A model generated the notes under the pieces. It did no database searches. It had not been told where the DNA came from and saw nothing but the letters and a program-made list of their open reading frames with translations. 64,000 nt of DNA from Dudresnaya verticillata (lineage: Eukaryota): NCBI GenBank assembly GCA_977862235.1, contig OZ374563.1:1178001-1242000 (forward strand), in the 5' to 3' direction. The position numbers and the translations under genes are program-made. Below, piece after piece: positions 30,847-61,848 of the stretch. The first letter of the stretch is position 1. Every line of letters begins with the position of its first letter.

Positions 30847-30864
30847 TTCTAGGTCGGGAGACCA
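30847..30864 (-). promoter_or_regulatory. G2 primer binding site
   Basis: TGGTCTCCCGACCTAGAA begins 1 nt after the LTR end (...CCACA). It is complementary to a tRNA ending GGGAGACCA (tRNA-Tyr-like, tentative). Confidence 0.75.
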
Positions 30865-30865
30865 G

Positions 30866-31712
30866 TGTGGTATAACGAAGTCCACGGAGACGCGGGGAAG
30901 TCTCGCACTGTAAGGAATGGCCTCGGAGCCTAACGAATGGCCTCGTAGCCTAACGGAGAAACGAAAAGGGGTGGTATCGTGGTAGAGCGGAGCGACCAAC
31001 ACGAAGGACCACGGTGTCAACGTATTCGTGTGCGGAAGGGAGAACTCGAGCGATCGATCACCGGGGATGACTCCGGGTGCGCGGGGCTATCGAAAGCGAG
31101 ACTCGACCGTATCCGCGGTCACGAAGACGAAGACACCGAACTCGAAGAAACATGCGTTTACCGAAGACTCCGAGGTCCGGGCGCTAGTCGCTTATCGGGA
31201 ACCCTCGGAGGTTGTGCCAGACGACTGGCTACTAAGTAGTACTACGTGAGCACGAGTGCGCGTCAACGCGGGAGACGGTTCGTACTCGAATGATTCGTAA
31301 CGGCCTCGGTTCCAACGAACGGTCGTCTCACGTATGGTGGCGGTTACGAAGTGCGCCAGGGATGCATACGGAGGTGCGCACGCTTCGTGGGCCTCGATGC
31401 CGTTACGCGCGGGAAACAACGGGAAAGTCACAAAGGTGTCAGCGATTTCGTATCGGGTGCGCACTGTAATGCGAATGCCATCGTGGCGCGCGCGATCACG
31501 AAGTCAGCTTGGAATCCGTCCGGAGCTGTCAGCGATTTCGCATCACGTGCGTGCTGTAAAGCGAATGCCATCGTGGCACGCGCAGAGTATGCGCACTGTA
31601 ATACGTTTGCCATCGTGGCGTGCGCATTCACGGAGTCACTTCGAAATTCGTATTTCTCGACTATTTTTCACGTAGACCACGGAGTCGTTTTGCGCATAGC
31701 GTCTATACCACA
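30866..31712 (-). repeat. G2 5' LTR
   Basis: Direct repeat of 18835-19680, followed by TSD copy GTGTT at 31713-31717. Confidence 0.95.
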
Positions 31713-31944
31713 GTGTTCGATCGGAATTCTACAAGATGGTTGCTGACGACCCTGTCCAAACCAAGTTGATGATGCCTGTCTTCGAGAAGAAGAACGGCAT
31801 CGCTGCTTCCGATGATCTGGTCGAGCCAATGGAGAAGCTCGACAGCCTCATGTCCAACCAGCTTATGAAGGAGGTCGCCACACTAAGTGCCAGCAACGCA
31901 ACGAAACGTGCAGGCAAAGGTGGTGCCGGTGGCGACAATTAGTC

Positions 31945-33911
31945 GGCATACGTTCTCGGCGCCCTCTTTGGCGTGGGACGCAGTCTCGCGTCGGGGCATG
32001 GCGCCAACTCGGCTGCTCGGAGTTCCTCTGCCGAGCAGTCCGATTTGGGATATTCGACCATCCAGATATCCCTTTTCAGCCAGGGGCTGGGGAAGAGTTG
32101 CCGAGTATCCCACAGTCCGCAGAGGACAAGGCCTTTGCAGAAGCAGACCTTACAGAGGGGTGCTTATCCGGGATATACAACGAAGTTACCCCGTCGTATG
32201 CTGCAGAGGCCAAGGCCCGGGGCTCTATTTTGTCATCTGCCTTTGTTGTAAGGCAGGATGGCGCAGAGGAGGGCCCGAAGGGCCGCTTCGTCGTGAATCT
32301 CGCGAAACCGTCAAAGCACTCGCGCAAGGGGTCAGTTCGGAAGGAGTCGATGTCGGACTTCGCGATGCAGATCCAAGAAGGAGACCACTTCCTATCAATG
32401 GACATGTACAAAGGCTACCGTCATTTTCACCTCGCTCCTGCCATGCGCGACTGGTTTCTGTTCCACTATCAGGGCCGTTACTACCAGTGTGTGGCGCTGC
32501 CCTTTGGTTGGGGCGGTCTCCATTATGGTTCACGCAGCTAATGGTTCCCTTCGTTCAGGAGTTGCGCAAGCAAGGCTTTCGAGTTCTAGCGTATCTGGAC
32601 GAGTTTCTGATAGTGTCGTCAGTGCTAGGGATCGTCGCCACTCTCCGGCATTGCCACTTTGCAGCGAAGAAAATTGGCAAGCTGCTTCTCTCACTCGGGC
32701 TCCGTCGTCACCCCGAGATGGGATGTTGGTTGGGAAGTACCAACATCGAGCACCTTGGCGTTCGGATAGACAGCGTGGCGATGCGATTCTTCATCGCCAC
32801 AAGGAAGGTGGACTAGGTTCAGTCACTCGCCCGCAAACTACTTTGAGAGGTTCGCTCGGGCCGGCGCTGGGTGAGCAAGACAGTGTTGGCGCACTTCTGT
32901 GGTGCTTGTGTTTCCCATACGCTGGCTATGCCCTGGGCAAGATTTTATACGCGTGCACTGTATTGGTACATGTCGTAAAGAAAGCAGTCTCGCGATGGTC
33001 GGGGTCGCGTGAGGTTATCGCATCAGAGCATCCGTGATTTGCGCAAATGGCGGGAACGCAGTGCGCAGGAATTGGCAGGCCGCCCCATGTTTCCGCCACC
33101 GCCGACAGCGGCGTTGCATTCGGACGCAGCCGATGTTGGCTACGGCGGCACTCTGAACTTCGAGGACTTACGCCGCGGGGTCGATGGGAAATGGCGCGCG
33201 CAGGGGATCTGGAGTTGGAGAGACCGAACCAACTCCATCAGCTATCGAGATCTCAAGACAGTCCGAATGCTACTCACCGGGTCCTTGGGCGCCAAGGTTT
33301 TGGAGGGACAGCATCGAAGCTTTCTTTTACATATAGACAATCAAGCAGCCGTCCACTTCACCAACGCCCTTGTCTCCGGCAGCCGCCCCATGATGAGGGA
33401 ACTGCGCAGGTTGAAGACCGTCCTCGATCGCCACGGCCTGTTTATCAAGGCGGAATGGATACCCTCCGCGGTGAACAAGTTCGCCGACGGATTGTCGCGA
33501 CGCTTCTAACGCGGAGACTTGCGGGTCAGGAGGCAGCTGCGGCGTTCCTTCCCGGCTGGAATGAGGGCTCCGAGGGACGCTTTCCCCTATCGCCCCGTCG
33601 GGGAGAACCCCGTCATGGCACGGCGGCAGGCGTACAACGAGCTGTCGGCTCCGTGGAAGCCGGACGAGGTACGCCTGCTTTGTCCTCCGATCGACCTGAT
33701 CCCAGCGACCTTACACAAGCTGCGAACGACGGCGGCCCCGCCGATGATGCTAATTCCAGATTGGCCTCGTCAGGGCTGGTATGCCCAAGCTGTCCGTATC
33801 GCGACGCGGGTGCAGAGGCTCTACAACCACACGGCCGAGGAGACGTGGGCCGGGTACCGTCGTCTGAACCCACAGTGGCGGGCGCTGCTCCTCGACATGA
33901 ACCTCGCTTGA
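31945..33911 (+). pseudogene. DIRS RT - RNase H - Dam-like methyltransferase remnant
   Basis: KGRFVVNL, SMDMYKGYRH, LPFGW, YLDE (variant of YLDD), HSDAADVGYGG, IDNQ, WIPSAVNKFADGLSR and MT-like CPPIDLIPATLHKL...LIPDWPRQGWY. Several stops and frameshifts. Confidence 0.9.
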
Positions 33912-33931
33912 CCGGCCGATCTGCTGGCCGG

Positions 33932-35757
33932 ATGGCGCTTGCCGATTGTGGCATAGCTGTAAGACCAGCTGTGCCACGCAAGCGCAGCTGTAAGACCAGC
34001 TGCGCCACGTGTGCACTGCTGTGCGCACGCTGTCAGACCGGTGGCGCCGAAGCCCCGCTGAACTGTAAGGAAGTGCGCAGTGGCGCCCACGTGTGCACGC
34101 GTTCGCGTGTGACACTGAAACTCCCATGTAATATCTACGTTTATTGTTTTGTAGTGTACAGCACCGTCTAGTGTAAGCGGCGGTCGAACGCCCTGCTGTC
34201 CTGCGCACTGTGCGCACGCACTCCGGCGCAGAGCCGTTGAGTGCGTGACACGCGCGCGCGTACTCCGGCGTCGAGCCGTTGAGTACGTGTGGACCGTTTC
34301 GCCTACGCGCGCCCCCGGGTTACCGTTACCCGTACACGTCGACGCGTGTTGGGGCGCGCCGGAGCGCTTCCCGGGTTGGTGCCGCCGCAGGCCCTGTAGT
34401 ATATCTAGTAGTCGCCCCTCTGGGCTTCAGTAAACCAGGCAAGCCAGCCTACGCCAGGCTTGCCCTTTCTGCTTTGGGTATCTTTCCCAGTCCTTCGCCC
34501 TACGGCTTCCCTCTTTCCCTAGCCGCCTAGGCTTTCCTTTTCCTTTCCCTACCGTCGGCTTCGTGAGGCCCCACGACAGGGACGCAGGGATCCGGCCGCT
34601 GCCGCCCGCGTATGGTACGCCCCGTGCGCGCTCAGGCTTCGACGCCGTTGATCCGCGACCGTCGACGGCGCGCGCGACCGACACCGCCGCTCTACCACCA
34701 CAGTTACCACCCTTCGACGGGTCTGGGTGCGACTGATCGACCAGCGCAGCTAGACGTCAGTTCGACCTGACGTATATGCCACACCGATGCCGCCTTGGCC
34801 CGAATGGGCGCACATGTGCCCACGCTGGGAATGATCCGGTCGTCGCGCCTATTGGCGGACTTCGTCTGGAGTGGACGCACAGCCGCCACGCGGAATTCCC
34901 AGTGGCGGGCGTGGTTCGAGTTCTGCACTGTAGAGCAGCGGACGCTTCTCCCAGCCACGGAGGTGCACTTGGTGGCGTTTGTGGGATGGCTGGTGGCGGA
35001 ACGGGAGGCCAAGCTGCGGAGAGTTGCAGCGTCATCGCTGCCGCAATATTTCAGTGCGGTCCGGCAGATGCAGGTCATCCTGACTGGGTTCCTGTGCCGC
35101 CTTTCCCATTCCTTTCGCACGTCCTGCGCGCCTACTCACGGTGGGAGGAGACCGAGTTCCCGCAACCGGAGACGCGTTGCGGCATCCTGCTTCCGCGGTG
35201 CAGACAATCTGGGGCATGGGAATGACGACGTCCAGCCCCAGCAGTCTACGCGACGCAGCTATGGTTGTGTTCGCATTCTGCCTCAATGGCCTCCACGAGA
35301 GCTCGGTGACATCGCTGCCCGCGGCGGCCGTGCGCATCACGACGGACGCTGTGGTGGCGCACTTGGCTGTGGCTAAGGGCCAAATGGCCAGCTATGTGCC
35401 CCTGGTACGCTACGAGCGACTCTCTGGAGAGCACCCTTCACCGCTCGGCCTGTGGCAGCGCTGGGTGCAGGCACGCGGCGGCCACCCCTGCTTCTTCGGC
35501 CTTGATGGCGAGCGCCCCACGCTTCCGCCTGGCGTGATGACGCGGGCTTTGGAAAGCTGCCTTCGCGCTGTGGGAGTAACGCCGCCAGCCGGTGGGAAAT
35601 ATAACCTCATTCGCTGCGCATAGGATCGCACACGGAACAGGTGCTGTTAGGATTCCCGTTAGAGTTAGTGCGATTGGCGCGCTTCGGTTGGGGACCTCGT
35701 AGCGCAGAGATAGCGGCGACTTACTTTGACCGGACGATACAGCTGTCCGCGGCGTAG
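33932..35757 (+). pseudogene. DIRS tyrosine recombinase, interrupted by the solo LTR
   Basis: MALAD|AALARM... rejoins across the TSD. N-terminal TRNSQWRAWFEFC, NGLHES (R to H), HSLRIG, RFGWG and TYFDR. Confidence 0.87.
33947..34783 (+). repeat. Solo LTR of the G1 family (837 bp)
   Basis: TGTGGCATA...TATGCCACA termini with 5-bp TSD CCGAT at 33942-33946 and 34784-34788. Confidence 0.93.
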
Positions 35758-36019
35758 TTCTGGGTGTTCGGGCTGTCAGCCGGACGGCAGCCCGTTTCCC
35801 CCGTTATGGTGTAGCGGCCGGCGCTCACTGGGAGGTCTGCTGGCTTGTGGATGCGCTCGCTGGCGCCATGGTCCGCTTCGGACGACGCACTCGCGGAGTG
35901 CAGGTGTTGTGGAGTTTCGTCTTGTATAGACCCTGGGTTTTATGCTGATGAAATTGTAATCACCAAAATAGCAAGGCCGGCCACACAAGGTGGCGATGCG
36001 CGACGCGTACGAATGGCTC

Positions 36020-41112: not shown

Positions 41113-41824
41113 ATCAAATGTTACGTCCTGCAGCTCTGTCAGACATTAACGGTGTCAGACGGGTTTCTGTGCTCCAATCTGTTATGCTCGATAGTGCCAT
41201 TCATGTACCATGCACGATTCAAGTTCAATGGCATGCAGTCCTGAGTAACTGAGCGTGAGCAACTTCCGAGACTCGGTGAGGGGCGCTTCCTGTTGCAGCA
41301 GTTATCTCAACATCGCGGTGGCGGGCTTCGGTCTTCATTATTGCTTCGTGCCGTAAACTGTCGTGAGAGATGTCTTACAGGATATATTGTTCCCACTTCT
41401 CTCCACAATGTGTATGGGAGAGAGACCGAGCTCATCACATGAACCTGAGATTCGAATTGCCCACGTATTAATTGGCACGCGTATTAGCACACGTTTTTGT
41501 CCTACCCAAATTTAATTGACGAGAATCAGAATCTCCCTTCCACCACCGTTTCGGTTGCACTCAAACTGTACGGTCGTCCCCAGGGCAGTTACATGACGTA
41601 AAGACACGTATCTTTATTCCGTCGTTGAAAGAAGGCACACAGGGTCTCCATGCGATACACAGTGTGATGTCTGTCTCCAAGGCTTAGACTATAGCGGTAG
41701 TCTGTGCGGTCAATGCGGGAAAGCTCACTTGCCACCTTGCACGCCCCTTACGGGGTTTGACTAAGTTCTTGAATTCGCTCTACAATCCTTCACGGCCATC
41801 TAGGTAATCACCTTCATATTCGGA

Positions 41825-44754
41825 ATGGGTGGTGGGAAGCGAAAGTCGAGAGGTGCTGGACCTAAACAGATTCCTCGATCCACGCAGACCGCAAAAGCTC
41901 TATTCGCCGACTTAATAGATGGTTCCGTCAACACAAGAGTAGACCCCGCTTCCTGTATTCCATTGACGGCCATTCGTCGTATTGTGAGGTCTGGACTGGA
42001 GCGTTTGAAGGCACGCTTTGATGTGTCGCGCAAGGACCTCCACGATCCTCGAGCCAGTGCAATTGGATATGTTGCTGGTTCTGACGCTCCCATTGTAATT
42101 GAAATGTCTGGGTCCTTTCGATCTTCGGTAATTGAGCACTTCCAACAAAAGTTGAAAAATGCGGAACGTCATACTCGCAAAAAGAATCCGTGGAAATGTC
42201 AAAAACTCGAGCGAAATGGTATGGAGTAGTGGACGGGATGCACAGACTTATAGCTATCACAGAACTCCGGGAGGAGGATTACGGGACGTGGAAATCTTTC
42301 TCATGGCCTGTTACTGTTCTGAGAGGGAGCCATGAATTGCAGTCACTTCGAAAATTGGCTCGTCACCAAAATGACAAGCACGATTCTTCATTCTACATCG
42401 AGACTACCTTCTTCGATACTCTTCGAGGCCTGAGAGAGGAGGCAGATCGTCTCACAGCGGGGAATGGCGGAAAACTTCCGAATGCCACGAGGATTGCTGA
42501 AGCCTATGACGGATGCAACCATTTCAGGGACAATACTGTTAAACAGACTGCTCAGACTGTCCTTAGACTTGACCGCGCAGTGATTGCCACAATCGGAGAC
42601 ATTATAGACGAGAATAGGGGTGATATGGTCTCGATTCGATCTACAACTGTGGATCACAAGGACATCAATAAGAGTATGGACTGTCGAGTGTACCGCACGT
42701 TCATCAATGTAACATCTCTCAAGTCCGCAACAGTGTTCATGAACGCGTCAAAAGCACCGGATGGTGTACAAGCACAGATTGCGACTTTATACCGTTTGAG
42801 AGAATTGCACCGTTTACACAACTTCAAAACGCTGTCTTACCGGTACACCGTGGAACAGTTTCAGAAGGCCACCGCCGCTCTTCACGAGGTTCGTAAGTTT
42901 GAAGCTCTCCGGGAAAGTCACGAGTGACCAGAGTCCATGCAGGTGCTTCAATCTAACCTTCTCAATACACAGAAGATGGATGACGAGGTTGCGGAGAATA
43001 TAGGAAATGACAAGGACATTGTGGCATCTATACTGGAATTGTACAGGGATGTCTGTCCCCAGGAAGCTGCTGTTAAGGAGAAGAAGCATGCCGACTTGCT
43101 TAAGAGCTTTGGCGGAAATAAGACAACACATAGTTCAGGACAGTGTCCAGATAATGCCGCTCTGGAAGGGTCGCACTTGCACTGTGATAGTGCCGAGCGC
43201 ACTGATTGTGGAGATTCCGCTCCTTCACCAAAACCTGGGGCACCTGTTGATAAACAGAATTGCAAGTCTGTCGCCGCGGGATGTGTTGGCAGTACTACTG
43301 GTTCCGGAACAAACCCTTCAGAACCGCAGGGAAACGAGCAGGAATCACCAAATGAGGATGGCAACTGTGGCAAAACACATGAACACAAGAAAGGGACCGC
43401 TAATAGCCATGCTGGAGACACTGGGGAGGACACGAATGGCCATCTGGAAGGGAATGCAAAACATACACGATCGTCCGCGTCTACCATACAGTCTGAAAAG
43501 CTCGAAACATCAGGTAATGAAGAAGTCGATGCACTGAATTCAATGAGGATCAGCTGCCATCACATGAGGTGGCAGACGTATGACCAGTCCGTTCGAAACG
43601 ATTCGAGCCCACTGTTAGACCTCGTACTGACGGACCCTCCGTACGGAATACCGCCTAGTAGTTCGAATTCTGGTACATCTTACGACAATTATATCAGCGA
43701 TGGGGAGATTAAGCAACTCATCGAATTCTGTCGAAGGGTCGTTAAACCTGGTCACTGGGTTTTCATCTTCTGCAGTTTCATTAACTTCGCAAAGTATCAA
43801 CGTGCTCTGGTTGATGCTGGGTTCGACTGCCGGGAATATCCCGATACCAGGACATTGCAGGGACATCGTAATGACTATCCACATAATGATACGGAAATAG
43901 CCGCGTTTGGTCGCCGACGGGGAACGTGTGGGGAAAATTCAAGCCTGACATCTCCAGTCCACTTCACTTCTTGGGAAGCAAAGAGCGGCGAAATTTCGCA
44001 ACCTTCTCAAGTGTTACAGTATCGAGACAAAAGCTGCTGAAGCCAGGGACCAAATCCCCTGTTCTGGTAGAGGAGAAGAACGTTTTGGCTCTAATGGAGG
44101 TCATGACAAATTTCTGTCCCGATGGTGGACGGGTTTTGGATGCCTACCGAGGTACCCTGACCACTTGCATTGCAGGTTTGAGAACGGGGCGTCCGACTGT
44201 GGGCATCGAGCAGAACCCTGCAACATTCAGACTGGTATATGATCGTTTGAAGAAAATCGCAGTCGATGTGTGTAATGAAAAGCAGCGCTCTTCCACACTC
44301 ACTGTCGTCAAACGGCAACACCGCGAAACGACTACCGATACTGATTCCGCTGCGAAGAGACGGAAAGTAGTAAAGAATGAGGAGAATGTGATAACTTCAA
44401 CTGTAACAGACCATGAACCCGCCAAACAGAAACGAACTAGTCCGGAAGGCTCAGAATATGATCCTCTGCGGGGTGCTTCGAAGGTAGTCCTGCTTCAAAG
44501 ACGGAGATAAGGTCGGAACAGCATCTGTGAAACGAAGTGCTGAGAGTTCCAAAATAACTGAGCCTCTTCACGGAGTGTCGTTGTCGAAGGTTGCCAGGGA
44601 AGGAGAACAGCTCGTCTCTCTTTACGGATTCAGCACATTACCTGGATGTGAGTCCCGGAAGTATCCGTATAGTTTCACATGCCAAGAGGAAGCGCTGGAG
44701 ACGCTGAGTGGGCTGGTGGGGTTCTTTGCATGGGATTTGCACAAGTTAGAATAG
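41825..44754 (+). pseudogene. ParB/Srx-like domain fused to a beta-class (permuted) amino-DNA methyltransferase, probably N6-adenine; disrupted
   Basis: YGVVDGMHRLIAI (ParB-like). LDLVLTDPPYG (motif IV) precedes VLDAYRGTLTT...GIEQ (motif I region). Frameshifts near 42190 and 43930; stops at 42927 and 44510. Confidence 0.82.
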
Positions 44755-45504
44755 TCATACAATCATCTCTCGATAAGAGGAACCAGTCCGTCGACCCAAG
44801 TTGTTCCTCTAATAGGGCGGTTTTACTTAGGAAAAGGTAGAAAAAATTTTAATATCAACCTGAAGAGAGTAAACAACCCTCATACCGCACAGTACTTAAA
44901 AAATCTACTGGAAGTAGTTCTCTATCCTAGTCTGCCTGGCAGATGTGCATGACTCCGCCTTGACAGCCCGCTGTTTCTGCGCAATACAACGTCTAAAGGG
45001 CGGCGTGTCCTCCCCATATCTCTCCGCAATTCGCTGGCAAATTTTTTTCTGGAGAATTGTGAGGGTTATAAGCGTCATTGTAGAGTGTCTGGGACTTAGT
45101 CTACTCTAGCGTTGCCGTGAAAGGCGTTTATGTTAAATAAGGCTGCGTTTCAGCTCTACCGCCGTCGTTATCATCGCCTGGAGGCCTTTAACGGTCGTTT
45201 TTTACAATATGAACGTTGTAGTGGTGCCCCTCGGGCGTGAAGTGTCGGTTTTAGATATCGAAAGTGGAACTACTGTTGTTTTTTGATATAATTTCGCTTC
45301 TCCCAAGTGCGGAGACCCGTTTCGGTTTCTGTAATAGGGGGTTGCCCGTTATGACGGGTTTCACTAATCGAGAGATGACTGTAGTACGATATTACCGTTA
45401 GAGTAACCTCCGAGATGCATATTGGGTATAATCGAGCTTTTCAGAATCCTCCGTCTACAGCATTTATTCCAGATCAAATGCGGCTTTGCTGCAATGGCCT
45501 TGCA

Positions 45505-46571: not shown

Positions 46572-46913
46572 CCGGATAGGTTTTCACATCACGACCTTGC
46601 AGAAACCTAAAAACTATTATTAATATTGACGAATAGATTTTCACGGCGCGCGAGATCGAGTATCAGTTTAATAGGTATTTCTACACTGAATCTGGAAATA
46701 CCTATATAGGTCTTTTCTAAATCACTTTCACAAAACCTATTGCAATAGGTTTTGCTGTTGCCGCGTCAGAAATACCATTATAGGTATTTGCAAGCACGCA
46801 AACAGAATACCTATTAGAAAGGTTTTTGCGTCGCCGGGTCGAGAAAACCTAAAAACTAATATCGATATTGCCGGATATGTCCTGGCGGCTCGCATTCGCA
46901 GAAACCTATCCGG
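46572..46913. repeat. Dyad-symmetric array of eight 35-bp inverted-repeat units (ATAGGT-N23-ACCTAT consensus)
   Basis: Units start at 46576, 46633, 46671, 46706, 46745, 46780, 46818 and 46875. Gaps are 22, 3, 0, 4, 0, 3, 22. CCGG flanks both ends. Confidence 0.9.
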
Positions 46914-47229
46914 TCATCTCGGAATCACACAGTCCCGTCGCTGCAGGCACGCGACCGCGCGGTCGGTATGACACACATCAGAATAGCTGCATCTGCTTCC
47001 CTGCCCAAAACTACCCCTGCATATCACACCCACACCCTCAGCTGTATGTGCCGCCCTGAGCAGGCTGCAGTCGCAGCACAGCGTCGACGTCCGCCTGGTG
47101 TGGTCGAGGTCTGCCGCGTCTGCTGCTGCGCTAATCGAGCGTAGAAGCGCGCGCAATACGCTCCCATCATCATCGCGATATTGTTCCCACAGCGGCCGCG
47201 CCCACGCCTCCGGGCTGCTTCCGTGTTGC

Positions 47230-49200
47230 CTAATATGGAACCGATGTGTATGGGTACCTCAGAGTACAAGGCGGCACTACGAGCTCTTCGCAAGGATACA
47301 TACGTCGATGTAGTTCAGCTGGTCGAGACTCATGAGGAGAGGGAGCGCTAACCCTTCAAGCTGGCTAAGGAAAAGGTTGCACGCACGTGGGCGTCTGAAT
47401 TCAGCCCGTGCAAACCGAGTAATGCTGCATGTTGGCCGTCCAAGTCTTCTTCAATCCTCTTGTCAACTTTCCATGTCAAAGGCAGCAATTCCCGCGGCTA
47501 AGGCCGGCTCAGCGGCTGCGTCGGTGATCAATCCTTCCCAGCACACCAAGCTTCCTCAGACCGATTAGGCCATATACCTCGGTCCAACTATGGGGAGCGT
47601 CGATCCGCCGTAAAGTCTCGGCGATGTGAGGCACGTAGTAAATCATGGAATGGGATGCTCGCACAGCTTCCTCGTGAATTGTCCGTGGAGCCCCGCTCAC
47701 AACAGAATGCGGCAGCTGCGAAAACCGAGGGCCAGGTATTGTCAGGCTGGGGTAAGCACGCCAACGACGCCGCAAGAAAGGCACTAAGCATTAAGCTCAC
47801 TACGCCGACGGACGAAAAACGCCCCGAGTCGGCTAGTCGATCAGACTTGCAAGGCTCTGAGAGCGCTTCAGCTGAGGCGCTTAAGCGAATCAAGGATCGG
47901 GACCACCAACGATGAGCGTGGAAGAGTTTGGAATAGCTGCTGGAGATGATCAGCGACATCTTCGATGGCAACGTCATTGGCATCGAATACCGCTACAAAC
48001 GAAGGAGTGACTACCGAGCCAACGTCTAGACATGGAGGTGAGTTTTTCCGAGGTTTCTTTCCGAAACGGCGTTAACAACTGAGTGATCCTATCCCGTGCA
48101 TCCTGTATTGTGTTATTCCAGTCCTATTAGGCAGTGTAAACAGGTCATCTGGGTTCACAGCGTTGTTGATATCAACTGCGCAGTGCCTGCCAAGCACCCA
48201 GTGGGTGGCACGCACAGCAGTGCTCGTTTCTGCAGACAAGCAAGTGAGACCTGTAACATTATGCTTGGCTTTCCTATCGCACGCACGGATAGGATAATCA
48301 TGACTTGTCGTTTTGGAGAGCTTGCTCCTTGAACGAGGATCAGTGGGAGGACTGGCAGGAAATAGAAACTCTCCTCGGCGGCTGTCGCAGTGAGAACGAG
48401 GTTGCGAAAGGATGCAATCGGGGGGATGTGCACAGTACAAACAGATTTCCTTGTTCAAGACGAAGGTGCACGCAGCAACAGTCTAAGCAACCACGAACCC
48501 AACCTTTTGGGGTGTCCTCTAAGTAGAAGATATATAGACTCTACATGTGTTAATCGAAGAGGTTCAGCTTGCGCTGCATGGCCCCCGCGCGGTGATGACA
48601 AGGAAGCGACCGTGCCTGGCCAGTAGTGAGAGGTTCTAATTGACTCACATGGGTGTGATTACGGCAGAGGCCCATATGCGGTGGTCTTGTGTCGACAAGT
48701 ATGTCATGGAGAGAAGGTTTTCGATGCGTTCTGCGAACAGGCATTTGATGGGAGAGTTCGAGAACTACATATATCCTCTTGGATTCGCGGCAGTCAGGAA
48801 ATGCACCTTGGGAGAAAAGACAGACTCAGAGTCACTGCCCGAACGAGCACGTTGTAAAACACAAGTTGTCCCTATTGAATACAATAGAGCGTGTCAAGGT
48901 TGTAGATGAGAAAGTGTTGCGTAGTGCTACACGACAAGATGTTTGCAGCCAACCAGAAGTGTGCCGGCACTATCTACGCTTCATTAAAGTTTTGTGTGTC
49001 ACGCTACAACGACGGTTACCGTCTATCTCGCAAATTGCGAGAAGAGACGCGCCACGCTCCCAACACGCGCTCTCCCGCGGCCGCCAACCGCAAATGCAAC
49101 AGCGGCGCAATGGGCAAGCTGCCCGACCTGAGCCACCTCGAGAGCTCACTTGGATATGAAATGCGCAAGACTCCAAATGATGCACCAGAAGCGTAAACAG
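47230..49200 (+). pseudogene. Heavily decayed coding-like sequence, unidentified
   Basis: Protein-like fragments (EYKAALRALRKD..., LEMISDIFDGNVIGIEYRY...) broken by many stops. Confidence 0.3.
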
Positions 49201-49217: not shown

Positions 49218-52200
49218 CTACGATTTCTGTAGGGAGTCTCGTATCTTCTTCTTAACGGCTTGGGGCAGGCATCTATTAGACAGCTTCTTAAACTCAACGA
49301 GGACAGACGCGGCATCAACATCGTCAGCCCATTCCTTCTTGGTTCTGGCGTAGACAGAAGGGCGATATTTACCGTCCCACGCGTCCTGTCCTGAACCAAC
49401 CTCATACCACTTGATTGAAAGGGTGCAAACAACACCTGCGATATCCTTCTTCCAGCCCTGTACCTGTGCGATCCAGAAAGTCACATTGTTGTCCTTAATG
49501 TTTAATACCACGAAACGGTTGACACCATTCTGAACCATTCTGAAGCGGCCGAAATCAGTGTTACGGGCGCGGTAGGTTGTGCCCTCGCTATGGGCAATCC
49601 GACGAACGGTACTAAAATTGGTCTGTTCGACCATAGGCAGCTGCCTGACCTTCTCCGCTACTGCGGGTCTTGTCGTGGGCAGTAGGCCCCGAAGGAACTG
49701 ATGTGTCAAGTTCTCATCGGAGTACACGCCAGCGCAGGCGTCCACATACCCTTCGAGGCGAGTAGCGAACTCAAGCTCGGACTCGGCGTCCCTCTGCTTG
49801 GCGGTGGTCAACCGGTCATGGGCGTCTGCGATGACGTCGTACGTGACGAACCTCTCGACGAGGGTATTGACCACCGAGGCCCAGCAGGGTGGGATGCCGC
49901 GCTGCGTTGTGCGCACTCCAGAGAACAGGTGACTCGAGTACACCTGCGACGCGGTTCCATCGAGGAACCAGGACACCACACGTGCCGCTGCGCCTTCGGA
50001 TAGTCCAACGCAATTGAATGCTTGGCGTAGCTTTCGAAGCACACCAAGCAGGCGAATCGGCTCCTTGCCGTCGAACCGGTCGAGCCGGGGCATCAGGGCC
50101 TTCGTGCGGCTGAAAATCTTCGCAGTGTTGCCACTGCACACCTGCTGTTGGTTGTCTCGCTGATCTACGTCATCGAGACGGTAAGAGCGGTAGTCGATCG
50201 CCTTAGCGAACTCTGCCACCAACGTGGTTAACGGCTCGATGCCTGCCATGAGTGGGCCCCAATGCCAATAGGCAGAGACGGGGCCCTCGTGCTGTTGGGA
50301 GGTCGGTCCCCCCTTTGTGTTTTGCCCGTCGAGGGCTTGTTGGACCAGCCTGGGGTCGACCCCGTAGAACGGATTGCGGTCCCCACTCGGATAGTGCGAC
50401 CCCGCCGCACTCCTCGGTGGAGATGGCGGCGGTGAAGGAAAGCGATGCCGAGCTCGTTGCTCGGCAAGTATTGCAGCGGCCAATTCTTGAACTGCACCCG
50501 CTGGTGACTGCGGTCGCGGAGGAGAGCGCTGCGCCGACGACGGGCCCGTAGCCCGCTGGCGTTGCCGCGTCGGCGCGCGCTCTATCAACTCAACGCGGCG
50601 GCGGAGCTCATCGAGGAGGCCCTGTGACCGGGTTATTATGTCCTCGATGGACGCCAAAGGACCGCGTGGAAGCGTGTCCAGGTCGTGCTGGCCGTCAGCC
50701 TTCGCCGTAGCTATCGAAGCTGTAAGGTGGTCGTACACCTCGGCTAGCGAGTCCATGGTATCCTCATACAGCAGGCTTCCCATCCTTTCCCTTCTCCGAA
50801 AACCATGGATAATGATAGAAACGACCTCCTCTTCGGGTGAAGGCTTTTTCCCCATGTATATTGACAAGTATGCCGTCCTCGTTAGACGAAAGGAACAAGC
50901 TCTTGGGGTAGAATGTCTCGTTGTTTTCAACCGACAGCTAGTACTGGTGTCCCCGAGACAACCCGTGCACGAGCTTCATTTCAGAAGCACTAGGTTCCAT
51001 GACCGTAACGTCGCCTCGGAGAACCATCACGCTGTACGGTGGGATTGTTACCAGCTTGGAAGCAACACAGCCCAACATCAATTCCCTCGTTTCGTCGTAC
51101 CTCATGTTCCGGTAGATATGGGACGCGGGCCAGATGCACAGCACCGTAGGTTGTCGGCCAGTGAACTTCACAGTCACGTTCGAGATGTAGGGCGCTTCTG
51201 CATACACAGGCAATTTCCGCTCGGAACGGTAAGTCCTGTCCGGATTCCACCGGGAGGAGGTGGCGCAAATTTCGTGTGAGGAAACGTCCTCATGAATCCT
51301 TCTCCTACGCAAACCAAATAGGATCCACCCAACGGCATCTCCAAATCAGTGTCGTCCAACGGAAGGCCGAGGCTGCCAAGAAAGGAAGCAATCAATGTGT
51401 CCCCAAAAACCTTCGCCCTTAAAGCTTCTTCGATGCGTGTCGTTGCGCCTCTACTTGAAGGTGTTCCGTATGCGCTATCGCGATAGGACGATGAACTGCC
51501 TCCTGGGACATTACTCTCGATTTCTGTTGTGAACCAAAGATTTGAGCTCTTGACCCAGAGATTCTTCATGGCCACTTTTCGGTTCTTCTCCCAATCCTGA
51601 GCTAACGAAATTTCAACACTTCCACGGTTGTACATGACTTGAGTCCAGGGATGTTTAAGGTTGAGCTCCAGGGAGTGCATGTTGTTTCCACAAGCATCAA
51701 TTTCATCCCGAACAGGTACATCGGCATGGTTGAAAGCAGCTTGCATGAAATCTATGTACGCGTCAGTATTTGACTTCAGGCCTCGTCCTCCAACGCCTCT
51801 AGAAAGTGCACCAATGTCAACAACAAACCCCTCGCCCTGTAGACGCTTGGAAAGCACGTGAAAGTGGCATTTGTTGTTCATGGTTGCTTCGTCAACGTGC
51901 TAGCCAAAGACGCGGGTTCCGGGCACATTCTTCGAAGGACCGTCCTTTCCACTTACTGCAAACAGTAACGCCATGTTGATCTCGGCAACGTCGCCCCACT
52001 CAAGGTAGTAGGAAAACCTTGACTTACCCTGAATTCCGTCTGGCAACATCTCAACGCCTTTCATCCTTGATGTGTAAGGACTGAAGACCATCCAGTCCGG
52101 CAGGTTGGGAGTACCTTGTCTATGAGATTCCCGCACTTCCCTATCCTGAACGGCATGGAAATATGATCCGGAACGGCTTGGTATGCGTGAAATGGGCCTC

Positions 52201-54971
52201 TCCCCGGGCATAGGACGACGAGTTCCATTATCTATGCCCGCTTCCTTTGAGACATCCAAGTTTCTGCCACTGGCAGGATGGGATGCAACTTGGCCAGCCC
52301 CCTTCTTCTGTCCGATGTACGGATATGAAGAACCATCGGTATCTGTCTCATCTGACATCTCCATATCTGACGCTCTCATGGAAAGGTCAATTTCTGGTAG
52401 TGAATCAAGACTTGGCGCTCGTGGCTCTTGCGCTACCGCGGCTGCATCAACTGCGAATGGAGGAGAGTCCAATCGGCTTCGAACTACACGTACTGCAGGT
52501 CCTTTCACGGGTCGCCTTTGGGGACTTGCTTCTTGTGCGTGTGATCCTTTCGCCAGTGCATTAGGCGAAATGCCGTCGCTAGTCTTCTCTAGAGGCGCCT
52601 TATCGAAAATATCTCCAGAAATATCCTCCTCGCCTGTCACTTCGTGGACCTTGCCTTCAGATTGTAAACCATGCCCTGGGGCACGTGCCGTGTGGGTACC
52701 CACATCACGTTGCACAGAATTACTTTCCACGTCGCCCGCATCTCGTTCGTTTGGTGGAGTGCTCTCAAGATTTGGAAAGCATTCAGAACAGAATGCCAAC
52801 ACATCTATCCGGATATTCCCCGGCCAAGGGCAGGCCCTCCCGGCCATTGTCGATAACTGCCGATTGATCGGAAGCATGCAAAGTTGCATCTGGCTCGGAG
52901 TCGGATGAACTAGCTTCGAGAATTGCTATCATCTCCTTCACTCTTTCCTCCTCCAACCTTTCTCTATATCTCCTCTCCATATCCTCGTATCAGTTCGGTG
53001 GTACGGTGTTCATAGGCCTAGTTCTATTCGATTGGCGACCAGGACCCTTGCGTCTGGCATCCTTGTTGATTGCAGCCACACGCGAGAGTTCTTGTTGCTC
53101 TTGAATTGGCATTCTCTTGATGGCTCGCTTCATTGCTGTCGTCCTTGCTCCATAACTCTCTTGGATCCTTCTCCAGACCTCACTTGCAGTCTCCTGTTTG
53201 TCCGGGGTTGGAAATTGTGCCGGTGAGATGCCGGCTGACGCGTCATCTTCAGATTCACTGATCGAAATTGGTTGTTTTCCACAGAACGTCCTTGCTTCTT
53301 GTTGACTGCCGACCTCGGGGGCTCCCTTTGCTTGGCTGCGATGTCGACATCGCATGTCTTCGACGCGCGTTTGGGCATCTGTCGAACCTCTCCTCTCGCG
53401 AAATTCGTTTTCGGTGAACGACCTGACCTCGATAAAGGACGTTTCCCTCTGTCATCGTGCATTTCTGGAGACTTGCGCCCGACCTTGCTACGCGGTTCGG
53501 CTCCAGGAATATCTTGTGCTCCAACACCAGCAGGGTCTTGCACATGTATATCTTTGGAAAGGGTACTTGATGTACGCCCCACAGATGGGAATCTACCCGT
53601 CCTTTCATTGCTAGCAATGCCTGCGATGAATGCCCGAGCATCCGCAGTATTACTAAACGGGGGCGGGATGCCAGTACCGGATATGCCTTCGTGCGGAACG
53701 CGGGTTGTAGGCATAACACGTGGTGAACGGCGAAGTCCCTGTCGCCCGCTTCGGTTTCCGATGTCTTGACTTGGGCCATCAGAGGATATTCCAATTCTTC
53801 GGCGCACTGTACCTTCACCAGGACTACGCACGGACTCGGTTTCCTGCTCCAAACTGTTGCGACGAAGCGTACGCTCGCGCACTCTCTTGGCACGTTTCCC
53901 TGGGTCACCTGTACGACCTCCTTCGCTGCGACGGCGTTGTTGAATCGAACCTTGCCTTTCTCCACCTACAACTTCCATGGAAGGGGCCCTATCGCGAGAT
54001 CCAATCCCATTCCTAGAGCCCCGCAACGCAGGAGTCGCGACGCTTTTTCAAGTGATAGAGTTGGAAAGGATGGGTGGCAATATTATGTCCTGCGCGGACC
54101 AGATCGCATTTCCGTCGCTGTTTCCTCCATCCGACACCGAGTTTTTTTCACTGAGTCTCGCGATGACACGGTCCAGCAACGCCTTGAGAGATATGATTTG
54201 TGAGCCGACAATACCATCTGCAGCTGCTTCTGACAAGCTACCCCCGAGCGGGATCTCTAGCGTTTTGCCAATCTCTGCAACGATCGCTAGAATACCGCCA
54301 TTCACATTCACACTCCCAATCCGATACGATCCTTTAACCCAAATCCGGTTGGACACTTCGGGTCGTTCCCGCAGGAGTTCTGCAGAGAACTGCACCAGTC
54401 TTCTAATCGTAAACACGAAGTTTCGAACGAAGACTGCGGGCCACTCCTTCTTGCGATTCTCCGAACGTTCCAACATACACCTTGTTGACGTTGCAATCAA
54501 CACCGCAACCTTCTCCACGCATCCGCATTCATGAAATTCGTGGCACTTGAACACCTCGTACACAACCGCAAAACCACCATCGCATTCCAGCAACCGCATA
54601 TACACGTCGAATGCGCGCTGCATTTCTGCTCCAGTCATGGAATGCGCAGTATCAAAGTAGATACTTTTCGTTGTACGCGACGCAGAGTGAAACGCAAGGT
54701 CCACTTCGTTCCCTGCAACCACTTCCTCAATCCGACGAACTTGTCTCTCAAAGAGCTCATAAAGCCTTGTATTGTTTTCCAGCTTGTCGTTGAAGGAGCG
54801 CACGTTTTGGGAATGGAGAAAATCGCGCAGCATGCCCATGACGACTCGCTTCATCTTGCAAGCTTGTCCTAGGATGACTAAACCCCAGCTGTGCAAGGAG
54901 AAAGGTCCTTGAAAGGACAAATCGCGAATCCCGGAAAGAGCGCGAGTTCGGTCGAACTGTACAGACATCAC
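49218..54971 (-). pseudogene. Long disrupted gene: N-terminal globular region, disordered linker with a Cys cluster, 2OG-Fe(II)/PhyH-like segment, BAH/SH3-like C-terminus
   Basis: Abutting ORFs are joined by in-frame stops (52990, 51900) and frameshifts. Motifs FPHTK, LCIWPASH, IPPYSVMVLRGD and FWIAQV...SIKWYE...YRP. Continuity across the gag insert is unproven. Confidence 0.5.
49564..50774 (-). mobile_element. gag: LTR-less gag fragment of a G1-related family
   Basis: LLYEDTMDSL...EGTTYRAR is collinear with G1 gag (about 10241-11452). No LTR or TSD. Confidence 0.92.
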
Positions 54972-55438
54972 GACGTCAAACTAGCACCAGCAAGGCCAAA
55001 TCACAACGTTGTAATCTGTGTGGCGGTCGCCACGCGAACAGATTTCGCGACGCGTCTAGACTGAGTGCACCCGACTGTGACACCGACCTTGCAGATAGGC
55101 TCCGGTGGCGAGCGGTCTTCTGAGGTAGCGGAGAAGGGGCGCGACCTGGCGAAATGTAAAAAGGTTTCGGCGGTGTTTCGAAACACAGTTGTGCACTTGT
55201 GCGCAGCAGCCCGTTCGCGATACGCGCTTTGGTGAGCTTCCCTTCCCCCGACTGCCGTCAGGGTCAGGTGGGTGGGCAGTTGGGTGTTGGCTTGTGGGGC
55301 GCCAAGGGGGCGGGTGTGCGCGCAGAAGTGTCGACAAGAGGTATTGTTTCGCACCAGTCGGAGCACGCGCGTGCTGCCCGTGTTGCGTTTCACAATTTCT
55401 AAACCTGTAAGGTTCGTGCGAACGCGCGAACCTGCGCG

Positions 55439-55942: not shown

Positions 55943-57684
55943 TTTGAGTACTCAAATGGGATTAATCCAATAGAGTAAGTGTGCAAGCTTGGAAATGATG
56001 ATATGCATCTCATCGTGAGGGATTTAGCGCTCGGTTGCCACGGCTGCATGCGGTCTGAGTTCCAGTTTTCCCGTTCGGGATGTGTCGACACCCAGATGCG
56101 TCTCGGGGAAACACAGTTTTTGCAGTTTGCAGTTTCCCCTTTTGTGGTTTGTGAATGCACAAATGCTGCTTGCCTTCAGACAAGAGGTCTTGCTCCTACC
56201 TATACCTATAGGTAATTCTATTTCCTTTCCGATGTGTTTCTAACGGCATGGTCATTACGTTATACTATTATAGCTACAATACTGGGATATATCGTATATT
56301 GTAGCAACAAAGTCTTTTCTTGTCGATGTGAAGGGGTCCGGGGAACCCTTCGTAATTTTTTCCGGTGAAGAGTTGTATTTTGTTTCTCTGCATTGAAAGA
56401 GTAAGTCTAACCTTACTGCTAGGTTTGTAGCCAAACGCATATATGCGTTTGTATACGGTATATATTTGTATATAAGAATAATTACTCATGAAGCCTCTGT
56501 CATCCTTTCGGCCGAGGTACTCGGCACTTCAGTAAGTATTCTATAGTTACTGAAATAAGTAAGTCAGTAAGTATCTGAATTCTACTTCAGTAAGTATTCT
56601 ATACAGCTACGATCCTTTCCCTTCTTTGGAAAGGATGCCTCTAAGAAATCTTGTACATGTACTAGAAGCTCAGAGTGGTGTTCCACTAGAGTTCCCTGTG
56701 GTGCAATGGCCGTACGCGGCTGTAGAGCACCCCCGAGAGTTCGGGCTCGGGAAGGTAGCTGCGCGATCACGCGTGAGAAAGGCGTAAACGCGGTGGTAGA
56801 GCTAGGAAGCAATCCGGCGGCGGACTGTAAACACCGTCGGGTTGTGTGTGGGCGTGGACGCCAGCAGTAGGTGTAAACACCAGTGAAGGGGCGTAGACGC
56901 CAAAGGTGAAGGGAGGATGAAGGGATAAGGGGAGGACCGGAAGGGGTGTGCTGGAGAGGTAGAAACGGGGGAAATGAAGGGAGCCGAGCGCGGCGCGGGG
57001 AGGAGCAGCAGGGAGGTGCGCGTAGGGAGCGTCGGGCAGGCGGTTGGCACGGGTTGCGCTAGCCTTAGCCCGCGGTGACGCCGAGCAACGAGCTCGTGGG
57101 TCAGGCGCGGGGGAACTCAGCTGCAGAGCCCATGCTTGGGGTTGGTTTACTGAGGGTGGCCGGCGCCACTCGCCTTAAGTCCCTGGCCACGGCGGTAGGA
57201 TAGCTAGGGCTACCATACACTACCTACAATAAACTAACACTGACACCTCAGTGTACCTAGTGTACACTGAGTGTCGACTACTGTAAAGGGAAATGTAAGT
57301 AATAAGAGCGCGCGCGGGCAGGCCCAGAATGGGCTGCGCGCGTCCGAAGTGGGCCGGCGTGGCCACGTGTGCTACCTAACGAACACAAGTGTGTACGCCT
57401 TCGCGAGTAACGCGCTGATCACGTGTTAACACGAAAAGGGGCAATATCGTTGCACTACATTCCCCATATTCCAACTAGGAGTACCACGGGAAAGGTTAAG
57501 TTCTTCGCGCTCGCACTCCAAATCCCTGCACCCTTCGGGTAGTTGCTCAAGAAATTGAGGGCGCCCTCCCCGGGGACTTCCTGGCCAGGAAGGCGAACAG
57601 TCCCGAAGCCGAAGTTGTTTCGATTAGCCTAGGCCTAGGCAGACCGCCTCGAATCGATTGGGATTCTAATCGTCTTCCAACGTC

Positions 57685-60600
57685 ATGAATGGAAGCGAAC
57701 TAGCTGAGATACTTTCCGAGTTCCTCCGTCAATTTCCAGGTGCACATGAGGATATGTTTGACCAAGACGTATCCTCTGCGCTATGCGAAGCCCAACGTCT
57801 TTCTGGGACCATGGTTCCTTCATCTCTGCGTGCCAGATGCAAAACTATCATCCGTCTTCTTTGGACCTCCATGGATGCGATACCCGCTGTCGTCATATCC
57901 TTTCGCATCTATCTTCAAGGCTAAAGGATGGTTTACATTCCCACTTAGCAATGGGAAGAGGAGGTTGAATAACATCTCATTCTTGAAGAGACTTGCTGTC
58001 ATGCATGGAGACGAGGATAAGAAAGGTCCAGTGCGCCCTTCCTTACACAAAGGTTTCGTTCGGGACTTTGCCCAGGTCGACCCCGCTGGATGGAGATGTA
58101 TTCTTACATTTTCTATTCATCTCATGGGGATACAATCTACCATCGAGGACATCAAAAGTGCGCAACAACGGAAAAGAAGGGATGGGCACCGGCGGAACAG
58201 AATATTTGGTCCCGAACAGACCCTCCTTGATCCATTGCAGTTTACAAGAAGTTACTACGGTGAAACGGTACTGGTACACTCACCTCTACTCGAAAACGAC
58301 GTGTATCCAGCTTTCGAAAGCTTCGCTGGGAATGTAGGTGTGTTGAAGGAAGTCGAACGGATTCTAAAATCCTTCACGACATATGTCGTTTCTCACCAGC
58401 AGTCACAGGATTCCGGGTAATCCCGTAGACGATGTGGACTTCTTGAAGGCGTGTGCAGGGTGACGAGCGAAAACGTTGCATACTACGTCGATTCATGCGC
58501 GAGAAGGTGCATTGGAAAAGAAATTCTTTCAAGACTTCGTGCAGCAGTGGATCTCGAAGAAGGTAATGGTGAGCATGGTTCTGGAACCGCCGTTCTTCGG
58601 TCCACATACCCGCCATCACCTCAGGATTTCGGTTGTGGACGGGCAGAAACTAGGTTTGGACCTTTTCCTCGAAGGGTGCTACCATGCCATCTCAAGCTCT
58701 TTTGAAACCGGTGATAACAGATTGGATTGCCAAATTCTTGCAAAGCAGTGGGTCCGGAGCGTTTTCCACGACGGGCCTGCGGGGTTGATAGTAACCGACG
58801 CCCCGAATATGGTTGCAAACAAGTCCGGTGCGGATGCGAACCAAGCGGAAGTGACATCGTTTCGAAAGGATGATTGTGCAGAATCACGCTTCTATGGTCT
58901 GCAGTCTTTCATGTCAGCAAGTTGTGCAGAAGGCAACATACGTGTACCGCATCAACATTATCATGCAGTGATGCATGAAGGAGCGTCCCAAGCTGAGGTG
59001 ATGAAGGTACACTCTTTTCAAGACATCATGGATTTTCGTTGAATCAGAACATAGGTGTTTTACAAAACCACCCGAACTGGAAAGCTGCGAAACTTCCATT
59101 GAGCCGGGAAAGGTTATAGACACCCGACCTCTTCCGACGTTTGTCAAATATAGAAGGGATAAGAGACCAGGGGCCCCTGGTCTCCTGATACCGGAACCAA
59201 GTGGGAAAAGCCGATGTCTGGATACCACTACAGTTGAGAGAATTATGTCATCACTTTCAGGATTCAGTAGGCTCGAAATCTTGGACGTCCTCCAGGAGAA
59301 CTACATAACCCCAGTGTCTATTCAAGACATGATGGAACTACTGCGAGGTATAACACCCAGATCAAAAGCTCAAGATTTCGTTCGGTTGTGGAAGCAAGCC
59401 ATTCAATATTCAGTCCTACATATTCTTACGGAATGACCATCCCAGACATCATTCGAGGCCAGTGAAGAACGATCTATGGGTCCAGAAATACAGGTTCTCG
59501 AAGCCAAGCGCGGTGGAAAATGAATGATTGTCAGTATCGCGTTCAAAAGCCAACCTAGTCTTCGTAGAAACGACTGGTTTGAGATTTTGATGAAAGGAAA
59601 CAGCGCAAGATGCCTTGTCTCAAGAACATATCGCAAATCGAAGGAAAGGATGAAAATTGAACAATGATTTGCAAGTTGCAAGGAAGACTGGGTGCTTCTA
59701 AAAAGTAAACCACAAGAGCGACGCTTTCGCACTGTTATCTGTAAAAACATGACTGCCTTCTTCGACCAGATGAAGGCCTTCGATGAAGTCCATTTGGCGT
59801 AAGGAATCTTGCTACAAATACTATTGAATGAACGTGGACCTGAAACCCTTCCGGCTCTTACCTGGAAGAAAATCTGGGACCTGCTTCCTTCGGGGACTCG
59901 AACAGCTATTGCGTGCTTAGGCGAAAATCCATGTACTACCATCAAGGAAAGTCTTCAGGCTGAGATAGAAGGTGTAATGTGCTACAATCTTCGTGTCACG
60001 AAGATGTACCTCCCCAGTTTTGAAATGGGTGAAATATTCTACCTCGTCCGACACAACTCTGAGCAAATTGATAGGAAGCTTGTCGTGGATACAGTCTGTT
60101 ACATGCTGGAGGGTTTTCCTACAAAAGCAAACAGGGCCAAGGGTGAGGATTATACAGCAGCAGAGCAGACCCTTCGTTGGGCTCAAGTCAATTTTCTCTT
60201 CGCTGACTATACGGCCGCTATCTTCCCAGGGCGTGGGGAAGACGATGATGATTGTATAACCTCTCCGGTGGCGTGTATACAAATTTTAGTGTTAACCTCC
60301 TCACATATGGAAACAGGTCTTGTGAGACAAGTCTTTTCGAAAGCAAGAGTCGGTCAGGATGGAGATTTGACTGCTCCCGTTGAGGTCCGCACGGTCACCC
60401 GTTGTCGAGAAAGGACAGATACGAAAAACGTTGTACAAGCTTGTTCTTTCGAAGGAAGCATGTCATTCTATGTAGCATTGATGATCTACATGAACTGCAA
60501 CGCCTCATGGATCGCGCAAGAAAGAGAAAGAGGTTGCACATTCCGAACTTTCGTTCCATTATTCTGGTTAATGGGGATCGCGTGTCTGTCCCAGCGTTTA

Positions 60601-60830: not shown

Positions 60831-61848
60831 GGACAAGAAAAAGCCGACATTAGCGCCGCTTCATTGGTCAGGACGACAGTGCATGCCCCGATGCGGAATG
60901 TGCCTTCTGTGAGAAGACGACTTTTCCCGTAGTCTAATGGCATGATCTAGAAGCAAGGTTATGCCAAGCATACAGTTACCCAATCCACACAGAGCTTTTC
61001 TCTTTAGTAAATCAGTTAACTGAGAATTCCCACATCAGTACTACAGCCTTTCAAAAGATGTTACTGAACTGATTGAAAGGACGGACGCTGCCGACGCTTC
61101 ACAACGAAATCATGCAAGCTTATCTTTTTACCCCATTGCAATTGCCTGCTAATTCACTCCCTGCATGGCAATATATGTATACATCCAGATCGCTTTCCGG
61201 TTACTTCCGTTTCAAACATTTTCGAAACGGTAGCGAAGCTATCCCTTCTGTGCTTCACGGTATACAAAATAAATTGCATATCCTTTCGTACATTTTAATT
61301 GCACCAACCTTTCCTGGAGCTCCAGAGCCTAGGCTCCCGAAAATATTTTCTGGAGCCTTCAGGAAAGCTTGTTGCCATCATATGTTGACTCATTGCAGGC
61401 AACTGGCATCCGCCTTTCTATCAATGCGTTTGTGCACAGAAAGGTCTGCGTCACGAGGCATTGGAATTAACGGAATTCCGTATTACTTAAAGGAACTCGA
61501 GTCCCTTTTCTTGTAAAATGACACATGGATCCAGGGAGCGAAAGGATGGCCATTCGGGTACATCTTGTCATATTGTTGTTCTTCATTGCTATGCTGAATC
61601 ATTGTTTAGCTCAAACTCGATATTCAGGGAATGGATATAGATCTGAGCGTTCGATTGTTTACTTTAAGTACACGCAAGGATGATGGTGACCGAATATTTT
61701 TACCGCAAGGAGAATTTGAAACTAAAATTGGCTGCGTGTAGTTATAACGTTGTACAAATTGGTCAAACACAAAGCATTTATGCAAGTGTATGCCGATACG
61801 TAACATAGACTTTTGTCGTTATCTACGGTGCGGTTCATGTCAGTGAAA

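Follow-up and report, generated by a model that had tools for sequence, protein, structure and literature searches.

The locus and its surroundings

The window, that is the whole 64-kb stretch of DNA that was analysed, is eukaryotic in character and rich in transposons. Chromodomain Gypsy elements occupy much of its first 31 kb, and a lower-GC block of broken reading frames extends from about 36 to 64 kb. Within this block lies a 342-base array of eight palindromic units of 35 bp each. On either side of the array is a reading frame of the same strand; a decayed frame starts about 330 bp downstream of it. A broken gene for a ParB-like protein lies upstream of the array; a preliminary description of this DNA had placed the gene about 2 kb off, and it is indeed nearby, with 1.8 kb separating its end (near 44754) from the array. 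The features are listed below in window coordinates; the array and its parts have no strand.

41825-44754, plus strand: broken gene for a ParB-like protein with an N6/N4 DNA methyltransferase, candidate binder of the array; four frame pieces, fold taken from the homolog P0007
45886-46194, plus strand: short frame to the left of the array, coiled-coil-like; weak coiled-coil matches only, all below the cut-off, and no family
46572-46913: whole array; CCGG, eight 35-bp units read as four doublets (A-B-B-A), CCGG
46576-46610: unit 1; centre 46593, in CG
46611-46632: linker 1, 22 bp; imperfect 12-bp palindrome at 46616-46627 (10/12)
46633-46667: unit 2; right half-site degenerate; centre 46650, in CG
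46671-46705: unit 3; centre 46688, in TG
46706-46740: unit 4; centre 46723, in CA
46731-46754: perfect 24-bp palindrome surrounding the central TGCA (46741-46744)
46745-46779: unit 5; centre 46762, in CG
46780-46814: unit 6; centre 46797, in CG
46818-46852: unit 7; centre 46835, in CG
46853-46874: linker 2, 22 bp; direct copy of linker 1 (17/22); perfect 12-bp palindrome at 46858-46869; third CCGG at its end
46875-46909: unit 8; left half-site degenerate; centre 46892, in CG
49556-50760, minus strand: Gypsy gag fragment in the low-GC block; bounds approximate

No transposase was found with Pfam in 69 and 47 window frames (the 47 being shorter frames between 35.9 and 49.6 kb) or in the six frames of 50-64 kb, with PHROGs in 15 window frames, with Atlas for 54051-54980, or by a homolog search for 61852-63006. 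Long inverted element ends were absent from 35.5-64 kb. Neither a transposase nor termini of the Sola-1 or EnSpm/Plavaka kind were identified (window frames; 35.5-64 kb for inverted ends). Because neither a transposase nor element ends were identified, the array and the ParB-like gene may belong to separate nested elements. The surrounding DNA is probably a decayed eukaryotic mobile element, and the copy in the window is probably dead. The host organism may be an alga, judging by the related systems in the literature. A sigma-70 scan was at chance level.

Other repeats were noted in the surrounding DNA. The region 31816-35900 contains broken reverse-transcriptase-like and tyrosine-recombinase-like frames that appear DIRS-like by eye, with no Pfam match; an LTR-like repeat at about 33.9-34.5 kb splits it. 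Inverted arms of 480 bp are found at 18254-19680 and 30857-31712, with subrepeats of 42, 90 and 132 bp inside and a further copy 12 kb off. Just past the end of the ParB-like gene there is a 38-bp inverted repeat (44751-44788 and 45353-45390, 79%), which could bound a small insertion.

Geometry of the array

Each of the eight units consists of a 9-bp half-site, a 17-nt core and the inverted half-site, with no indel in any of them. The units start at 46576, 46633, 46671, 46706, 46745, 46780, 46818 and 46875. The gaps between them are 22-3-0-4-0-3-22, with TGCA in the middle (46741-46744) and CCGG at both borders (46572-46575 and 46910-46913). Units, gaps, centre and borders all lie where the preliminary description had put them; the core length of 13-16 nt given there is replaced by 17 nt between 9-bp half-sites in all eight units. 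The consensus of the 16 half-sites is ATAGGTWTT, and at eight of its nine columns 13 to 16 of the 16 bases are kept. Units 2 and 8 had been singled out as degenerate. Both are, and two mismatches in the hexamers are found in each of units 5 and 7 as well. Half-sites of neighbouring units abut at only two of the seven junctions.

The array is real and looks selected. The pattern ATAGGT-N23-ACCTAT with up to two mismatches has seven matches in the window, all inside the array, against a mean of 0.85 and a maximum of 3 in 100 shuffles. A motif-free scan for any pair of 5-mers with a spacer of 8-40 picked out the array alone in the window, with four exact copies; among 15 simulations three copies were reached once and four copies never. 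The two 22-bp linkers had been taken for direct repeats, and they are identical at 17 of 22 positions. The 12-bp palindromes within them are possibly a second kind of site.

The mirror symmetry claimed for the array holds for its gaps and fails for its descent. The outer blocks (unit 1-linker-unit 2 and unit 7-linker-unit 8) match at 55/92 positions as direct copies versus 42/92 when inverted, and the inner four units, compared in pairs, match at 42/70 direct versus 41/70 inverted. The mirror symmetry is one of geometry, not of descent, and four tandem doublets in the order A-B-B-A describe the array better. Two origins for the array were considered and ruled out: a foldback duplication of the whole array, because the linkers are direct copies, and nested insertions, which would require duplications of 4, 22, 3 and 0 bp.

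The start-to-start steps of the units are 57, 38, 35, 39, 35, 38 and 57, so that every second unit is separated by 95, 73, 74, 74, 73 and 95 bp. These distances equal nine or seven turns of 10.5 bp to within half a base, and the 22-bp linkers contribute about two helical turns. Such phasing of alternate units is reached by 37 of 8192 tested gap sets, and the best-fitting period is 10.5; just three of the distances are independent, and the pattern was noticed post hoc. As a separate observation, the inner four units (46671-46814) cover 144 bp, and units 2 and 6, like units 3 and 7, are 147 bp apart; these values are about that of a nucleosome core and may be coincidental.

The cores had been described as all different, even in mirror partners. 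This is upheld by their identity, which ranges from 1 to 10 of 17 bases over all 28 pairs, with mirror partners no closer. The centre of the core is an exception. The symmetry axis falls on base 18, and every one of the eight units has C or G there; the centre is overlapped by CG in six of them and by TG or CA, one transition away, in the other two. When cores were rotated, the central CG count, an enrichment noticed post hoc, had a p of 0.0003, rising to 0.019 when any dinucleotide at the centre was allowed and to 0.25 when any core position was allowed. The cores are thus not wholly free, their centre being held to CG or TG/CA, which is suggestive and not proven. The central CG may be a bend point or a methylation site.

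The neighbouring gene and related systems

The ParB-like gene has frame changes near 42150, 43950 and 44400-44500 and an in-frame stop at 42925. It retains DGMHR near 42234, a predicted helix-turn-helix near 42470-42575 and DPPY at 43633-43644, and is collinear with intact homologs of 887-1015 aa. Seven homologs match it at 48-57%, and the family is large: a cut-off of E<=0.001 gives 1127 clusters, and one of 1e-30 gives 161. PF01555 was found in 38 of the 45 long family members scanned, and the solved enzymes nearest to the methyltransferase domain are DpnA, CcrM and MboIIA. Intact homologs (P0002, P0003, P0005, P0010 and P0023) carry the ParB-like N-terminus and the methyltransferase in a single frame.

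Pfam recognised no domain in the N-terminal part of the family, and its fold was taken from a structure model of P0007 (110 sequences, pLDDT 86). The model matched VIA PadC with Z 9.9 (97 aligned, rmsd 2.3), pNOB8 ParB with Z 8.9 (211 residues, rmsd 4.1) and KorB with Z 8.3, while its residues 201-257 matched helix-turn-helix domains with Z 4-5. With Foldseek the first ten ranks were all ParB or Noc, at weak E-values (best 0.028). The family is accordingly modelled as a ParB/Srx fold followed by a helix-turn-helix, with an N6/N4 methyltransferase as fusion partner. Family members differ from one another in the second helix of the helix-turn-helix. The arginine of DGMHR matches that of the GxxR nucleotide-binding motif, and R occupies this position in 51 of 110 aligned rows, 9 rows being gapped. 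Of 52 long members just 19 keep DPP[YF]; EPP, ALP or similar is common among the others, and for this reason much of the family may be binders rather than enzymes.

With tblastn against phages 181 records matched, all in the methyltransferase part only, and a second homolog search in the range 1657-4730 aa gave no match. No further locus with the ParB-like gene was confirmed in metagenome stretches (136), genome contigs (67) or viral contigs (89, 13, 15 and 83 stretches). The single-unit pattern matched 120 viral stretches, none of which had more than two loose units. The two-unit pattern matched at no viral, 103 metagenome and 6 genome loci, and none of the 103 metagenome loci resembled the window or the protein family. 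At least three loose units within 400 bp were present in 23 of the 109 loci; the nine that were inspected are satellites or low-complexity DNA, with cores that are near-identical or of low complexity. These scans brought up no second locus carrying either the gene or the array.

In 25 of the 109 loci (L224-L226, L228, L229 and 20 metagenome loci, L124, L137, L138, L147, L151 and others) a two-unit site precedes a small regulator gene, which is homologous between the loci and encodes a 200-aa helix-turn-helix protein. In these sites 2 bp separate a pair of 35-bp TAGGT-N23-ACCTA units, whose cores are AT-rich and TATA-like. In five archaeal genome loci the two-unit site is directly upstream of this gene, and in several loci a nucleotidyltransferase-like gene follows it. 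The arrangement resembles an AbiE-type autoregulated operon. These prokaryotic promoters differ from the array at half-site positions 7-9, and have two units only with a 2-bp gap. They serve as an analogy only, the shared hexamer being set by the query pattern.

The general pairing has been proposed before, published work having described inverted-repeat arrays next to ParB-like genes of transposons. The red-algal Plavaka elements (EnSpm/CACTA) have tandem inverted-repeat arrays beside ParB-like PAG3 genes, for which self-binding was proposed (Petroll et al., bioRxiv 10.1101/2025.02.11.637652). The window shares with this cassette a tandem inverted-repeat array close to a gene whose product has a ParB-like N-terminus, here at 1.8 kb, and self-binding and self-modification of a mobile element is the role suggested for both. 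PAG3 is a 2OG oxygenase fusion, whereas the window protein is fused to an N6/N4 methyltransferase (PF01555), and no Plavaka transposase was identified in the window frames scanned. The text of 10.1101/2025.02.11.637652 gives no unit geometry to set beside the split half-sites, phasing and central CG of the array. The accessory protein of Sola1-1_Ec32 of Ectocarpus is a ParB-like and N4/N6 methyltransferase fusion of 1104 aa (PMC12477816). It resembles the window protein in its domains and in a length of about 1000 aa (887-1015 in the close homologs of the window gene). The AACCG termini and Sola transposase of that element were not identified in the window, and its account in PMC12477816 describes no array.

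The canonical parS is a compact palindrome, 14 bp as crystallised (PMC7383237). ParB-parS and Noc-NBS resemble the locus in combining a ParB/Srx domain with a helix-turn-helix, as predicted here from the model, and in having palindromic sites in several copies (PMC7383237). The window unit differs from parS in being bipartite, with a 17-bp free spacer in all eight units and half-sites that are not adjacent. The context is eukaryotic, and no ParA ATPase had a Pfam match among the window frames scanned, in a region that is decayed.

Two eukaryotic systems bear on function. VANC of the Arabidopsis VANDAL elements is encoded by the element, and the short motifs to which it binds have multiplied through tandem duplication within non-coding DNA of the element (PMC5735166). 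Its motif is 9 bp long and non-palindromic, its binding causes loss of methylation, and its domains are DUF1985 and DUF287 (PMC5735166). VANDAL/VANC is a tested works-like model for an array with an accessory protein; its motif has no fixed bipartite spacing in the account of PMC5735166, unlike the array, and its domains differ from those of the window protein. N4CMT of bdelloid rotifers is a eukaryotic beta-class amino-methyltransferase that prefers a CG-centred symmetric site (PMC10406627). Both it and the window protein are eukaryotic amino-methyltransferases, with SPPY in N4CMT and DPPY in the window copy. No ParB-like domain is mentioned for N4CMT in PMC10406627, unlike the window protein.

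Interpretation of the array

The array likely formed a platform for binding of the ParB-like methyltransferase fusion whose broken gene ends 1.8 kb upstream, the two lying in what is probably a decayed mobile element; we assign this reading a probability of about 0.5. The selected protein-binding scaffold that had been suggested for the array finds partial agreement here: the array fits a selected scaffold because its spacing is fixed, its cores are free, 8 of 13 half-site changes break pairing and alternate units are phased, and the neighbour has a predicted ParB fold. The narrower forms of that suggestion fare less well. A classical parS is not what the units represent, with half-sites 17 bp apart rather than adjacent, and nothing in the analysis supports an origin or a recombination site.

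A ParB-like dimer would read the two half-sites with its two helix-turn-helix domains, the 17-bp spacer would act as a ruler, and the central CG step would either be the place where the DNA bends or carry a methyl mark to be read or written. The in-phase doublets would then assemble an ordered complex, which would mark the element's own DNA or shield it from host silencing, like VANC for VANDAL. An unusual dimer geometry must be assumed for a ParB binder, with half-sites 17 bp apart compared with the compact ParB palindromes. The DPPY of the window copy, as in the adenine enzyme CcrM and not the SPPY of N4CMT, would appear to weaken direct methylation of the central CG. A stricter form, in which the dimer grips the half-sites so that the fused methyltransferase is held over exactly the central CG and the phased doublets form a clamp-loading platform that marks element DNA against silencing, is rather unlikely.

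Several other readings were weighed. In the main rival reading the half-sites would be bound by a transposase or a TnpA-like protein. The array would then be a non-autonomous element of 334 bp (46576-46909) flanked by a target duplication of CCGG, two ends joined across TGCA, or a subterminal region; we consider this possible, albeit doubtful. CCGG directly flanks both ends like a 4-bp target duplication, and the ends are inverted half-sites. Sola-1 has 4-bp duplications and complex subterminal palindromes occur in Ectocarpus EnSpm (PMC12477816), while TnpA works via motif clusters at element termini (10.64898/2026.08.24.746577). CCGG need not be a target duplication, however, because it is palindromic, also precedes unit 8 internally and occurs nine times in 1.1 kb. 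The flanks prolong neither the inverted nor the direct match (p 0.23 and 0.93), and the halves of the array are not inverted copies. The same CCGG at both sides would suit a MITE or other non-autonomous TIR element, yet the array is present as one copy in the 64-kb window. A site for another DNA-binding machine is unlikely, whether for a transcription factor of the host or the element, for positioning nucleosomes or for a recombinase. The place of the array between two same-strand frames, about 330 bp upstream of the decayed one, the spans of 144 and 147 bp and the archaeal promoters, in which paired TAGGT-N23-ACCTA units precede a small regulator gene, are in favour of this reading. Those archaeal sites depart from the array in the half-site and layout features given above, and no recombinase gene was found nearby, the sole tyrosine-recombinase-like frame (by eye) lying in the DIRS-like element 11 kb off. 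The cores of the array all differ, which disfavours unit-to-unit crossover of the kind that needs identical cores.

The array suits a double-stranded DNA site more than an RNA stem, since the departures from the half-site consensus are mostly uncompensated: of the 13, eight break pairing, four give G-U and one is compensated. A repeat-spacer RNA locus, with transcribed unit hairpins whose unique loops serve as guides, is highly improbable, most departures abolishing pairing and units 2 and 8 forming no hairpin. The region does fold strongly as RNA (z -5.65), and complementarity of positions 1-15 to their own partner is slightly above that to permuted partners (p 0.045; 0.099 with G-U; one locus). 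The strong fold arises because the array is repetitive, and it pairs half-sites from different units. Helical phasing would be meaningless for RNA, and an Rfam scan of 40-54 kb gave no match. Equally remote is a neutral satellite without function, built from a palindromic monomer and since decayed. Direct copying of the outer blocks and the many broken frames around the array agree with it, but neutral decay should hit half-sites and cores alike and permit indels. Instead the identity between cores is no higher than chance, eight of the nine half-site columns retain 13-16 of 16 bases and indels are absent, and the nine look-alikes inspected are ordinary satellites with near-identical or low-complexity cores.

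To the known kind of gene-array pairing the array adds a split site with a fixed spacer, helical phasing and CG at the unit centres. A literature search made by topic, not motif, and without bioRxiv figures or supplements, turned up no account of such units. The value of the locus is limited by its being a single decayed copy of a pairing already proposed in general. The array nonetheless yields three sharp predictions, namely that the half-site is 9 bp long, that the spacer must be exactly 17 bp, and that the central CG and the 73.5-bp phase play a part. If these hold, a bacterial-type clamp protein would have been put to a new use, the marking of eukaryotic DNA according to its sequence and geometry.

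Two minor features of the low-GC block were also recorded. Isolated palindromes of 18-28 bp, unrelated to the array motif, occur at 53337-53354, 56432-56451, 59163-59184 and 61331-61358. The same 13-bp and 11-bp words, in the same order and with different spacing, are seen by eye at about 41386-41420 and 47178-47255, where they precede the ParB-like gene and the decayed frame right of the array.
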